Assembly: GCF_003334355.1 (NCBI RefSeq) | Contig: NZ_QOWP01000008.1 | DNA length: 64,000 nucleotides | Origin: Escherichia coli | GTDB lineage: Bacteria; Pseudomonadota; Gammaproteobacteria; Enterobacterales; Enterobacteriaceae | Strand: one strand, 5' to 3' | Part shown: positions 55,801 to 61,800 of the stretch, one piece after another | How the letters are laid out: every line of letters begins with the position of its first letter | How positions within the stretch are numbered: the stretch's first letter is position 1 | Position numbers: made by a program

Positions 55801-58800
55801 CTCAGGTCGTTAGTCACATCGCCCGCAGACAGCGGAGATGTGCCTTTAGACTCAGCTTTCATGTCCTGCATACGACGAGTTGCTGCTTCAATATCATCTT
55901 CTTCTTTCACTTTGCTGGTTTTCAGCAAAATAGCAGAGACAACGAAGGAGACAGCCATCGCCGCACACACACCCGCGATGTTAGCGAAATAAGCACCTTT
56001 TGGTGTCATCGCCAGTACAGCAAGGATAGAACCCGGAGATGCCGGAGAAACCAGACCACCGCCCAGTATAGTCAGCGTGAACACGCCAGTCATACCGCCG
56101 AGGATGACTGCGAGGATCAGACGCGGATTCATCAGCACATACGGGAAGTAGATTTCGTGGATACCCCCCAGGAAGTGGATGATTGCCGCACCGCCCGCAG
56201 ACTGTTTAGCGCTACCACGACCAAAGAACATGTACGCCAGCAGCACGCCCATACCTGGACCTGGGTTAGCTTCAATCAGGAAGAAGATTGATTTACCCAG
56301 TTCATGGGACTGCTGAATACCCAGCGGCGAGAAGATACCGTGGTTAATGGCGTTGTTGAGGAACAGGATTTTCGCCGGTTCAACAAAGATAGACGCCAGC
56401 GGCAGCATGTCATGGACAACCATGAAGTTAACGCCCGCAGCCAGCATTTTGGACAGGGCTTCAACAATCGGGCCAATGCCGAGGAATGCCAGAATAGCGA
56501 GGATCATCCCGATGATGCCTGCGGAGAAGTTATTCACCAGCATCTCAAAACCGGATTTGATCTTACCGTCTACCCAGCGGTCGAAGTGCTTAATGCACCA
56601 GCCGCCCAGCGGACCTGCAATCATAGAACCGAGGAACATCGGCATGTCTGCGCCGACGATAACGCCCATGGTGGTGATGGCACCGACTACGCCGCCACGT
56701 TCGCCGCCTACCAGCTTACCACCGGTATAACCGATCAGCAGCGGCAGGAGATAAGTGATCATCGGCCCGACCAGCTTCGCCAGCGTCTCGTTCGGTAACC
56801 ACCCTGTTGGAATAAATAACGCGGTGATGATACCCCACGCGATAAACGCGCCGATATTTGGCATCACCATGTTGCTGAGGAAACGACCAAAGCTTTGCAC
56901 TTTGATCTTAATATCGGATGACATAAAAACACCCCTTCTTATGTTTGCTGTCGCGCAGGCTGGAAGCCCGAGGTTTTTTGTTAATGTGGCGGCAGAGGTA
57001 GCCGGACCTTGTAGATACTGCGAAATCTGGCACTGAATCGGTTAACTGTCCAGTCGACGGCCTTTTGTGTGATATCAATCACATAAATATAGGGGGTAGA
57101 GAGGTAATTGACGTGACGTTCATCACAAAACGCTTGTGTAAAAAAGCAACAAGGCGGCGATTTTCGCTAAAAATGGCATTTAAATGTGAGTAGTGTCACA
57201 TTTTTGTTTTGATGGTTTGTTGAATCTTTGTGATCTGAATCACAAGATATTTTCTTACGGCGTTCACCTGATGTGATCTACAGCATGTTATGCCTTCGTC
57301 ATACAATCGTTATGTAACTAAGCAACTCATCACCTCTAAAAATTATTCTTTGGTGTTATGGCGAGAATCGCGAACCCGGATTATTGTCAAAATATCAGCC
57401 TGACTCCCTTCTGGCTGCCAGCCCAAAAACAACACTGATAAACGTGAATCCGAGGCAGATATGTTTCTAAACTATTTCGCGTTGGGAGTGCTGATCTTCG
57501 TCTTTCTGGTGATTTTTTATGGAATCATCGCGATACATGACATCCCTTATCTGATTGCCAAAAAGCGCAATCACCCCCATGCCGACGCTATTCATACGGC
57601 GGGCTGGGTGAGCCTGTTTACTCTGCATGTTATCTGGCCGTTTCTGTGGATCTGGGCGACGCTCTATCAACCGGAGCGTGGCTGGGGTATGCAGTCACAT
57701 GTTGCGTCGCAGGAGAAAGCGACTGACCCGGAAATCGCCTCACTTTCTGACCGAATTTCCCGGCTGGAGCATCAACTCGCCGCCGAGAAAAAGACTGACT
57801 ATTCCACGTTCCCGGAGATCTAATTATGGATCTATTGATTGTTTTAACTTACGTGGCGCTGGCGTGGGCGGTCTTTAAAATCTTCCGCATTCCGGTAAAT
57901 CAGTGGACGCTGGCGACGGCGGCGCTGGGAGGCGTGTTTCTGGTGAGTGGTTTGATTTTGTTGATGAACTACAACCACCCTTACACTTTTACCGCGCAAA
58001 AGGCAGTGATAGCGATCCCTATCACGCCACAGGTGACGGGAATTGTTACTGAAGTCACTGACAAGAATAATCAGCTTATTCAAAAGGGCGAGGTGCTTTT
58101 TAAGCTCGACCCGGTTCGTTACCAGGCGCGAGTTGACAGACTTCAGGCTGACCTGATGACGGCGACGCATAATATAAAGACGCTGCGTGCGCAGCTCACT
58201 GAAGCGCAGGCCAACACCACCCAGGTTTCAGCGGAGCGCGACCGTCTGTTTAAAAATTATCAACGTTACTTGAAAGGCAGCCAGGCGGCGGTGAATCCGT
58301 TCTCGGAACGTGACATCGACGATGCGCGGCAAAATTTCCTCGCGCAGGATGCGCTGGTGAAAGGCTCGGTGGCGGAGCAGGCGCAGATCCAGAGCCAGCT
58401 CGACAGTATGGTTAACGGCGAGCAATCGCAGATTGTGAGCTTAAGAGCGCAACTTACTGAAGCAAAATATAACCTTGAGCAGACTGTCATTCGCGCGCCG
58501 AGCAATGGCTACGTTACTCAGGTACTGATCCGCCCAGGTACATACGCAGCTGCCTTGCCGCTGCGTCCGGTGATGGTCTTCATCCCCGAGCAAAAACGGC
58601 AAATTGTCGCCCAATTTCGGCAAAACTCGCTGTTACGTCTGAAACCCGGCGATGATGCGGAAGTGGTGTTTAACGCGCTACCTGGGCAGGTGTTTCACGG
58701 CAAACTGACTAGTATTTTACCTGTCGTGCCAGGCGGTTCTTATCAGGCGCAGGGGGTATTGCAATCATTAACGGTCGTGCCCGGCACGGACGGTGTGCTG

Positions 58801-61800
58801 GGAACCATTGAACTGGACCCTAACGATGATATCGATGCCTTACCCGACGGCATCTACGCCCAGGTGGCGGTTTACTCCGACCATTTCAGCCATGTTTCGG
58901 TGATGCGGAAAGTGCTGCTAAGAATGACCAGCTGGATGCATTATCTTTATTTGGATCATTGAGGGGGAGGGGGGAGATTATGGAACTTTGCTCCTTGTAA
59001 GGACTAATTATTTTTGCATATTACTTCATTAGCTGCGATGATTTTTCTTTAATATTCATTATGTTAATAAGTTCTGGATGAGTGTGCTCTCATTGGATTT
59101 TTTATCCGTCTTGTTCTGCCGCAGGATGAGACTATACATCGTCGAGATCGCAATGATGATATGAGTTGTTCCTCCTGCGACGGCTCTAATCAAAAAAGAG
59201 CAGGAGTGCTTTTCCATCTATTGCGATGATGGCTTTATTATCTGAAGGATGACAGTCACATTTAAAAAATATTTAATCTATAGATCACAATGTAGGGTCA
59301 TGGAATATATGTATACAACTATTTTCTTCTTCACTTTTAATTATCGTATTCATTATAAAACTAAGTTAAAAAAACTCCTGGAGAGTGAGGTATTAATATA
59401 TTTTTAAATAAAATTAAGTTATCATTCATCGATGCACTTTATAGAATCATCAATGGCCATAATAGTACTATTAACTCTCAATTTTATATTTTTATCATCA
59501 CTACAAATATTAACTGAATTTATATCAATGATTTTTTTATTCTTATCTTTTATTTTATTTACTGTTTCAATGCAATCAGCGGCAAGTTGGAGTGGATTTA
59601 TATTTTTCAGATATGGTCTTATGATCTTTCCCTTACTTAATAAATAGCATGTATAGGATTCGGAAAGTCCAGCATCTATTTTGTACCTCATTATATTAGA
59701 TAAGGATGTGAGAAATTCCTTGTTATCATTCGCAGCCATATATGCCAGTCCGAGTTCAGCCTCTGCGGCCTTACAGGCAAAATAGCTTAGTGAACACGCT
59801 TTTCGTCCCTCTTTAGTACTGGCTGATATTAGTGCCCATAATATTGCTTTGTCTGCCAAATCTAACTCTCTCTGAAATTGTCTTGCAGTAACTGCACTCG
59901 CAGAAATAGAGAAAAAAATACAATTGTTAATAACCTTGCCATATTTTTTAGTCCGTAACTGTTAATGTGCTATCTGGCTCTGAAAATATTAACTCATTTA
60001 ATTTTTGCATGTCATTAGATAAACCAGTTATACAACCCTCGGAACAGAATCGAGGTCCTAAAGACGGACCAAAAGCGTTTAAACAACTATGTATTGAAAA
60101 TCCATTGCGATTATAAGTTCCTGTATTAACTGACGGTACTAATCGTATGCCGTCAGGTTTTCTATTGCTTGCTCCCGGGTCATTAACATTCCAACTCCAT
60201 AGGCCTTGAGGTATTGGCCATCTATTTATAAATGTGTACAACGGGGATTATTTTTACATTGCATATTATTACCAGAAGCGACTGGAATACTAAGCACATC
60301 ATAAAAATTATCATCACATGGTATATCTGAAACACACGAAAGCATACCTAAAGTTATGCTGTATAAACAGGTGGCTAATCCCAAGGGGATCGATTCCAGA
60401 AATCGGGTTCAACGGATACTGATAAAAATTCCACCTACCTTCCAGCCCAATCGGAGCCTGAGTGTTATACCGCCCCTGCTGCGGTTAATGTTACCGATAC
60501 TAGTTATAGTACAGCCCTGATTCATCATCATACTACTGCTGCGGCAGTCTGATGAACTATTGCTTTTACGGATTCTCCTTATTCTTCCTTCTATCCATTC
60601 GCTTTAGCTTTTTGAGCTCTTGAAGTTTGCTCTTTGCATCAATATTACCGTTATTTACAGCGAATTCCATCCAATAAATAGCTCTATTCAAATTATAATA
60701 TTCTGATAATGTTGGATTTTTATCTGATAAAAAGACCCCATAATTAAACTGCGCTGTAACATTCCCCTGAGATGCTGATCTTTCCAAGAATCGCAATTGT
60801 TTGTAAATGTTATTTTTAGTAAAGCAGTAATATTGATATAGTCGAAATGATGCCTCTGAATCACCATGTTGTGATTTATACTTCAGTTTCATCAACTTTT
60901 TTTCACTTAAATCATAGGTCATTGCTGTAGACCCCATCATACTTTCGTTTTGTTTTATTTTCACATCAGCACCATGCAATTGACAAATAAAAGAGAAATA
61001 AAAAAATAGTAACAAGCATGCTTTCATACATCTACAACCTATCTTATATCACTGGGTTTTTCTGGCGTACCTTGCATATTAGAAATGGGGTGCCCAGATG
61101 GCCCATATGTTATCCAATTACCAAGGTCTTTTGTTGTTATAGCCATTAGATCCTTATTTGAATTAAGGTTCGTTGGTGCTGTTAGCACTGTATCCATTTT
61201 TAACTTACCATTAGTTCCTCGCCCCCACCACGTCCATAGCGTGTCAGGTCCTATTACATTTGTATGTAACTCTTTAGCTAATTGGCTAGCAAATGAATTT
61301 TGTCCTTTACCTGTATTACAAGAAAATAACCAAACTGTCATCCCATCTTTATAATTCCCATCAAATTTAATTAGATATGCTAGATCTTTAGCTGTCATGA
61401 TACTGCGCGTTGCGGATTCAATAGATGTGGGGGTACCATGCCCCCCGATTGTGAAAACGCCTGGGATATTAATCTCATCAGCTACAGAATGGATAAGATC
61501 ACTTTCGGGGTATAAATTTATATCAACCAAACCTTGCGGATCTACATTTATGACCGGATTCAACGGATACTGATAAAAATTCCATCCCCCCTTCAGTCCA
61601 ATCGGATCCTGAGTGATATACCGCCCCAGCAGCGGGTCATAATAGCGGTGGCGGTTGTAATACAGGCCGGACTCCTCATCATACTGCTGCCCCGGCAGGC
61701 GGATAAGCTGCTGCAGCTGATGCGGGTTCTCTTCATTCAGCAGGTTGCCCCATTCATCGTATTCTGCGCACCATTCTGTTGTCCCTTCCTTGCTGATAAG

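Follow-up and report, generated by a model that had tools for sequence, protein, structure and literature searches.

Here we show that yibI and yibH, two adjacent genes on a stretch of 64,000 nucleotides (nt) of Escherichia coli DNA (assembly GCF_003334355.1, contig NZ_QOWP01000008.1; hereafter the window), form a near-obligate two-gene cassette, and that this holds in both directions: the gene for a small DUF3302 membrane protein is followed by one for an EmrA-like periplasmic adaptor, and the adaptor gene is preceded by the DUF3302 gene. Both are y-genes already annotated in E. coli. What is new are the two-way linkage statistics, the lack of a recurrent pump gene, the family-specific features of both proteins, the exclusion of homology between YibI and AaeX, and a concrete structural hypothesis. 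According to this hypothesis YibI would stand in for the pump below a ring of YibH, which probably docks onto TolC, the two proteins making up one dedicated envelope module, and we consider the arguments for and against it to be about evenly balanced. The two genes are the following.

57461..57823, + strand: yibI coding sequence, 120 amino acids (aa), ATG to TAA, stop included (open reading frame (ORF) list, Pfam DUF3302, RefSeq).
57826..58962, + strand: yibH coding sequence, 378 aa, ATG to TGA, stop included, encoding an EmrA-like membrane fusion protein (ORF list, Pfam, NCBIfam, AlphaFold2 (AF2) model).

The gene identities and families assigned in the original prediction agree with the ORF list, Pfam, RefSeq and NCBIfam; on identical DNA, RefSeq labels yibI as a DUF3302 domain-containing protein and yibH as an HlyD family secretion protein. 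The tight coupling it described is also borne out, as only 2 nt (TT) lie between the yibI stop codon and the yibH start, so that the ATG begins 3 bases past the stop. Shine-Dalgarno-like sequences precede both genes (GAGG at 57452-57455 and GGAG at 57814-57817, respectively).

Two independent counts carry the conclusion on linkage. Firstly, a search of 1.84 billion representative proteins gave 816 DUF3302 clusters, and the 150 best matches listed were all short (70-229 aa). Scanning one genome per species with a diverse DUF3302 alignment gave 76 loci, 75 of which carry a YibH homologue (41-99% identity) as the next gene after DUF3302, in the same orientation; the one left over is truncated by a contig edge. 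Of 71 pairs, 68 have a spacing of -1 to 5 nt between the two genes, and the pair was found in Aeromonas, Ferrimonas, Alcanivorax and Ferirhizobium as well as in uncultured proteobacteria, among others. The same gene order was found in three distant metagenome or genome members, one of them in a 7-Mb genome, in addition to a fourth member on a contig that came without DNA. Secondly, metagenome contigs were scanned with motifs specific to YibH (…MNYNHP… and …R[KR][VI]LLRMx[SA]W…), counting the 63 loci that had at least 330 nt 5' of the adaptor gene. A DUF3302 ORF lies directly upstream of the YibH-type gene in 60 of these. One exception (L116) has just 353 nt of upstream sequence, another (L148) is a copy with a broken C-terminus, and the third is dealt with below. 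The co-occurrence analysis that the original prediction had proposed thus yields pairing at 75 of 76 forward and 60 of 63 reverse loci, and this two-way linkage contradicts the possibility, which it had allowed for, that yibI is unrelated to yibH. The lengths of the YibI tail and of the adaptor do not correlate (rho 0.03).

In one rhizobial lineage an in-frame natural deletion (L168 5001-5318 and L169 4810-5127; protein P0209) removes nearly the whole adaptor gene and joins the DUF3302 core to the C-terminal ~24 residues of the adaptor (…AILRKARLRMSSWMNYVFLEH). At both loci SulP and PPK2 genes lie downstream, as they do at the intact Ferirhizobium locus L076. The fusion represents a cassette in decay, or else a mini-protein in which the two most conserved ends survive. 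Together with an IS1A element that splits yibH in E. coli strain KFu022 (NZ_CP091677.1 4329712-4332389) and the broken metagenome copy L148, it could be taken to indicate that the whole pair is a functionless, decaying remnant of an aaeXAB-like operon (see below) that has lost its pump. However, 5407 of the 5426 complete E. coli genomes carry the pair, in every case on the chromosome, and query coverage reaches at least 80% in 5388 of them. In addition, the reading frames are full-length in more than 130 loci, at 41-99% identity and with invariant residues in both proteins, and many Enterobacteriaceae keep two or three paralogous copies of the cassette. Because such conservation contradicts decay, we regard a remnant as very improbable. 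The remaining 19 E. coli genomes have no match to the yibIH locus.

Adaptors are normally encoded in an operon with an energised inner-membrane transporter of the resistance-nodulation-division (RND), ATP-binding cassette (ABC), major facilitator superfamily (MFS) or putative efflux transporter (PET) type. No such gene lies beside the pair in the window, in line with what the original prediction had noted, nor does one recur at about 145 related loci. When the neighbouring ORFs at 76 genome and 80 metagenome loci were clustered, no pump or outer-membrane channel gene recurred beside the pair, and no DHA2-type MFS, PET/FUSC, MacB-type, RND or TolC-like gene was recurrent in either set. Therefore, the adaptor-only layout is general, and not an accident of the Rhs insertion that lies behind yibH in E. 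coli. Large polytopic ORFs do occur within 3 kb of the pair (15 of 70 loci from genomes, 11 of 75 from metagenomes), but they are of unrelated kinds: SulP, a phosphotransferase system (PTS) protein, the lactate permease LldP, AI-2E, TnaB, a 12-helix MFS protein and an ABC importer permease. In Enterobacteriaceae, the neighbours that recur correspond, judged by their order and length, to SelA, SelB, YibF, MtlA/D/R, AldB, YiaY and the LysR regulator YiaU of K-12; LldP was the sole recurrent neighbour in this family that the NCBIfam search named.

We also rejected a conserved third gene, as the only associations found are lineage-specific synteny (Mtl/SelAB/YibF in Enterobacteriaceae, SulP-PPK2 in the rhizobial group). 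SulP was likewise rejected as a partner: it recurs with PPK2 in that group on either strand and at varying distance, which indicates synteny and not an operon. A LysR regulator gene adjoins the pair in 17 loci. NCBIfam gave no matches for the upstream lipoprotein-like ORFs, and Pfam later assigned one of them to DUF3313 (E 5.7e-45). A gene for such a lipoprotein adjoins the pair in six Enterobacterales loci (L066 7289-7960; L045, L056, L059, L062 and L069), on either side and on either strand. The DUF3313 lipoprotein is a possible extra partner; its gene is absent at the E. coli yibIH locus.

The lack of a neighbouring pump could also mean that YibH serves one encoded elsewhere in the genome, for instance, in E. 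coli, an MFS pump or one of the unpaired PET/FUSC-like proteins such as YccS and YhfK, and that YibI is a small accessory protein like AaeX, YdhI or AcrZ. To our knowledge, all adaptors characterised to date work with an energised transporter. Furthermore, aaeX-aaeA-aaeB and ydhI-ydhJ-ydhK both encode a small membrane protein, an adaptor and a pump, YibH is 24% identical to AaeA and YdhJ, and its top family matches are adaptors of MFS and PET pumps. On the other hand, adaptors usually share an operon with their pump, and about 145 loci of diverse bacteria have no pump gene adjacent to the pair. Homology of YibI to AaeX or YdhI (DUF1656) had to be rejected (BLAST E about 1; hhalign probability 0.08%), and YibI is conserved far above the need of a dispensable accessory peptide. 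We therefore think that a pump acting in trans is rather unlikely, and return to the reading in which YibI itself is the membrane partner of YibH.

YibH has the architecture of the HlyD family (TC 8.A.1), consisting of a membrane anchor, a lipoyl domain split by an alpha-hairpin and a beta-barrel, according to Pfam, AF2 and Foldseek. Its Pfam matches are CusB_dom_1, HlyD_D23 and Biotin_lipoyl_2. The best NCBIfam matches, EmrA/EmrK (1e-32), MdtN (6e-32) and AaeA (5e-21), are all far under the curated cut-offs (113.5 versus 390.8 bits for EmrA/EmrK TIGR00998, and 110.9 versus 376 bits for MdtN NF007785). The AF2 model (single chain, 44 homologues, mean predicted local distance difference test score (pLDDT) 81.7) shows, in this order, helices 2-19 and 26-50, the lipoyl domain, a hairpin (97-151/161-218), the beta-barrel and a C-terminal helix (355-374). 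By sequence, the closest relative with a solved structure is E. coli EmrA, which also came first when the model was searched with Foldseek (EmrA in EmrAB-TolC, template modelling (TM) score 0.64-0.69; MacA and AcrA, 0.41-0.47), the Foldseek probability being 1.00 for EmrA, MacA, AcrA and MexA. The distinguishing parts of the protein are listed below.

57826..57975, + strand: YibH N-terminal hairpin of two membrane helices, aa 1-50 (hydropathy, AF2, alignment).
58114..58479, + strand: YibH alpha-helical hairpin, aa 97-218, with its tip around R147...S160-D165 (AF2).
58726..58785, + strand: YibH beta-barrel loop, aa 301-320, equivalent in position to the beta-CL loop of EmrA (pLDDT below 50; alignment).
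58888..58959, + strand: YibH C-terminal amphipathic helix, aa 355-378, where conservation in the family is highest (AF2 helix 355-374).

Conservation peaks at the two ends of YibH, that is, the membrane hairpin, with invariant N25, W27, G36, M47 and P52, and the C-terminal helix, with invariant R361, L364, L365, R366, M367 and W370. The alignment shows that the YibH family has two N-terminal membrane helices, versus one in EmrA, AaeA and YdhJ. Judging from the charges (D2 outside; K18 and R21 in the turn), both ends of this hairpin are probably periplasmic. The alpha-hairpin is variable in sequence among homologues; its tip arginine R147 is invariant in the YibH homologues and in EmrA, AaeA and YdhJ. 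The tip of distant members conforms to the canonical R-x3-L-x6-[A/S], and the enterobacterial tip contains an insertion. The flexible 301-320 loop aligns with EmrA ~294-317, and G304, Q307, G310 and L312 in it are at least 90% conserved.

In the case of YibI, Pfam assigns residues 3-78 to DUF3302 (PF11742; E 3.3e-41; model positions 1-76 of 77), and all 37 aligned homologues match this model. NCBIfam assigned no family to YibI, and a search of its model against the PDB gave nothing with E below 4, the PorL/GldL rows being insignificant. The original prediction described YibI as a small polytopic membrane protein; it is indeed a small membrane protein, but its two hydrophobic segments form a hairpin, so that it is not truly polytopic. 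The AF2 model (pLDDT 86) contains helices 2-26, 28-35, 41-68 and 90-113, and the following parts can be distinguished.

57464..57538, + strand: YibI membrane helix 1, aa 2-26, N-terminus probably periplasmic (hydropathy, AF2, charge).
57536..57598, + strand: YibI loop HDIPYxIAKKRNHPHxDAIH, aa 26-46, probably cytoplasmic (alignments; positive-inside argument).
57599..57664, + strand: YibI membrane helix 2, aa 47-68, with W49, S51, mid-membrane H56, W59, P60 and W65 (hydropathy, AF2, alignment).
57728..57799, + strand: YibI C-terminal helix, aa 90-113, probably periplasmic (AF2; a/d heptad I92 L95 I99 L102 L106).

Among 163 distinct YibI sequences, identity is at least 95% at H26, D27, P29, R36, H38, P39, W49, S51, H56, W59, P60 and W65, and at least 90% at H40, D42 and H45; the heptad positions 92, 95, 99, 102 and 106 of the tail are 80-99% hydrophobic. 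From charge distribution we infer a topology in which the N-terminus would be outside, loop 26-46 cytoplasmic and the tail periplasmic, with His56 lying near the middle of helix 2. It is deduced from the acidic N-termini of the 37 homologues (5 K/R versus 39 D/E) and from a DUF3302 clade (P0129-P0132, P0147, P0156 and P0176) with an extra N-terminal membrane helix, which has a basic segment before it and an acidic DIDFDT sequence after it.

The bidirectional linkage, the translational coupling and the co-conserved membrane parts make it likely that YibI and YibH form a complex. YibH would be an EmrA-type periplasmic adaptor anchored by a hairpin of two membrane helices, most likely assembling as a funnel-shaped hexamer, with the hairpin tips docked to a channel of the outer membrane, which would be TolC in E. 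coli. That it forms an EmrA-like ring docking TolC is plausible, although we place it slightly below an even chance. YibI would be the obligate inner-membrane partner, at the place that EmrB or AaeB occupies in classical pumps, and its coiled-coil tail may insert under or into the YibH beta-barrel ring, much like the EmrB helix bundle with the beta-CL loops of EmrA. Coupling to protons or a metal may be hinted at by His56 of YibI, which is conserved in mid-membrane, and by the HPHxD loop.

Several observations weigh against this arrangement. We know of no tripartite system whose inner-membrane part consists of a two-helix protein alone, and the YibI-YibH pair lacks an energy-coupling domain. 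The topology assigned to YibI has charge bias as its sole basis. The YibH hairpin is nearly missing in L078 and reaches about 120 residues in other homologues, which is not what a fixed docking geometry would lead one to expect. Moreover, the apparently intact YibH-type adaptor at L137 1549-2685 has no DUF3302 ORF in 1.5 kb upstream. Finally, deletion of yibH is tolerated well enough for the locus to be used as a neutral integration site (PMC5852967). The L137 adaptor, which keeps the conserved N-terminal hairpin and C-terminal helix, is the sole clear exception to the pairing.

A bolder extension of the two-protein module would be that YibI, YibH and TolC constitute a further class of trans-envelope system without a conventional transporter, in which an oligomer of the histidine-rich YibI, ringed by the twelve membrane helices of a YibH hexamer, forms the inner-membrane conduit or the unit of energy coupling. 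Coupling might then proceed through His56 and the HDxP...RxHPHxD loop, using protons or a metal ion, and the coiled-coil tail of YibI might gate the adaptor lumen. We consider this extension improbable.

The literature, in agreement with the original prediction that the pair is functionally uncharacterised, gives weak and indirect phenotypes and no mechanism (PMC5404293, PMC11796411, PMC5495878), and both yibH and yibI are included in the y-ome (PMC11551758). Fragments with the yibI promoter were induced 5.6-fold in human urine, the yibH promoter was also induced in urine, and a yibI deletion made uropathogenic E. coli less fit in urine and less adherent, with a competitive index of 0.33 (PMC5404293). 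A yibH deletion in Klebsiella pneumoniae led to fewer plaques from evolved phages (PMC11796411). With respect to the paralogous pair yiaW-yiaV, IS1 insertions in yiaW appeared in the course of macrophage adaptation and did not alter phagosome maturation (PMC5495878), deletion of yiaW is cited as increasing Ca-mediated transformation (cited in PMC12844161), and yiaV was a hit in a genome-wide association study of Vibrio vulnificus (PMC10485832).

As the effects reported for yibI, yibH and yiaW concern the cell surface and not drug resistance, the pair may transport nothing, and instead be an envelope scaffold, tether or sensor across the periplasm that affects surface properties. The DUF3313 lipoprotein gene next to the pair in six loci and the variable length of the adaptor hairpin would also suit such a role. 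However, the apparently conserved tip motif and the full EmrA-like, channel-forming architecture would have no obvious use in a pure scaffold, and the phenotypes, which are weak and come from single studies, could be indirect effects of a transport defect. A role without transport therefore seems unlikely to us.

E. coli keeps two copies of the cassette (yibIH and yiaWV) and many of its relatives keep three, and no function has been assigned to them. The YibH type is the sole adaptor type in E. coli without a transporter to adapt. If YibI is its membrane partner, the pair would be an exception to the rule that tripartite systems need an RND, ABC, MFS or PET pump, and a two-helix family with a His/Asp/Trp signature would gain a role. 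The links to fitness in urine, adhesion and phage plaques lend the question some medical relevance. The linkage data narrow it to one directly testable complex, without solving it.

The pair is divergent from mtlA, as the original prediction had stated: upstream of yibI, mtlA-mtlD-mtlR are on the opposite strand. The 536-bp spacer between mtlA and yibI contains all three perfect TGTGA-N6-TCACA sequences of the window (57068, 57185 and 57229) and one site with a single mismatch (57112), which agrees with the control region rich in cAMP receptor protein (CRP) sites that had been proposed.

57068..57244, strand not assigned: four CRP-consensus sites at 57068, 57112, 57185 and 57229 (consensus scan; sequence matches only).
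57277..57307, + strand: candidate sigma-70-like promoter TCTACA-19-TACAAT, directed to yibI (sequence-based).

In a genomic systematic evolution of ligands by exponential enrichment (SELEX) study, the spacer is listed with divergent constitutive promoters for yibIH and mtlADR (PMC3946193). The TCTACA-19-TACAAT promoter is tabulated under mtlA in that study; its strand in the window reads to yibI and not to mtlA. A 1-bp insertion in the mtlA/yibI spacer became fixed during long-term stationary phase (PMC7858067). On the other side of mtlA, a mechanically called ORF of 488 aa (53633-55099, - strand) corresponds to mtlD with a spurious N-terminal extension, which crosses repeated 'PSPHGEG'-coding sequence of the mtlA-mtlD spacer that resembles repetitive extragenic palindromic (REP) elements.

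Immediately past the yibH stop codon lies a G-rich run (GGGGGAGGGGGGAG; 58963-58976), and no intrinsic terminator was detected on the + strand downstream of yibH. The genes that follow are an Imm57 immunity gene, Rhs fragments, yibG, an Rhs core gene and yibF. Positions 59422-61983 of the window (- strand), right behind yibH, make up an AT-rich Rhs toxin/immunity island, and it is an insertion, because yibF-selA-selB directly follow yibH in other Enterobacteriaceae. It includes the following genes.

59422-59859, - strand: Imm57-family immunity gene.
60566-61027, - strand: yibG.
61039-61983, - strand: orphan Rhs C-terminal fragment.

The island and the phage phenotype brought up a role in a defence system, which we rejected: PADLOC gave nothing for YibI and only coiled-coil noise for YibH (E about 0.005).

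Among characterised systems, EmrA of EmrAB-TolC (PDB 8ZAL/8ZAR; PMC13139468) is the best match to YibH in both sequence and fold. The two proteins share the N-terminal anchor, the lipoyl domain, the alpha-hairpin with its conserved tip arginine, the beta-barrel, the loop at the beta-CL position and a C-terminal helix, and neither has a membrane-proximal domain. In EmrAB-TolC, which has a stoichiometry of 3:6:1, the hairpin tips open TolC, and a periplasmic helix of EmrB is gripped by hydrophobic rings, which are made up of the six beta-CL loops of EmrA (residues 294-317) (PMC13139468). However, YibH and EmrA are just 19-20% identical, YibH has two membrane helices versus one in EmrA, its C-terminal helix is different and near-invariant, and yibH is preceded by a DUF3302 gene, there being no emrB-like gene. 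MacA and AcrA, adaptors of ABC and RND pumps, share with YibH the lipoyl, hairpin and beta-barrel core and, probably, an R-L-S-type tip. Unlike YibH, they contain a membrane-proximal domain and bind the large periplasmic domains of MacB or AcrB, and their fold similarity is lower (TM 0.41-0.47).

With regard to gene order, the closest counterparts are the E. coli PET/FUSC efflux operons aaeX-aaeA-aaeB and ydhI-ydhJ-ydhK, in which, as in yibIH, a gene for a small hydrophobic protein is followed by that of a tightly coupled EmrA-like adaptor. YibH is 24% identical to AaeA and to YdhJ (E 2e-15 and 8e-18, respectively), but these have one membrane helix and a short hairpin, unlike YibH. The third gene of the aae and ydh operons, which encodes the pump AaeB or YdhK, has no equivalent downstream of yibH, where Imm57 and Rhs genes are found instead; the yibIH locus thus has neither a DUF1656 gene upstream of the adaptor nor a FUSC/PET pump gene downstream of it. 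As DUF3302 is unrelated to DUF1656, the likeness to aaeXAB is one of layout and does not reflect common descent of the small proteins.

The yiaW-yiaV pair, located 17 kb away in E. coli K-12, is just as uncharacterised as yibIH, and its adaptor YiaV (TCDB 8.A.1.1.4) is listed as an 'uncharacterized' orphan in PMC10971958. The yiaWV genes lie beside aldB and the gene for the LysR regulator YiaU, whereas yibIH are divergent from mtlA, and the tail of YiaW is 13 residues shorter than that of YibI. The two pairs are paralogous and have the same architecture: identity is 75% between YibI and YiaW and 77% between YibH and YiaV, the two adaptors being nearly alike in their N- and C-terminal regions.

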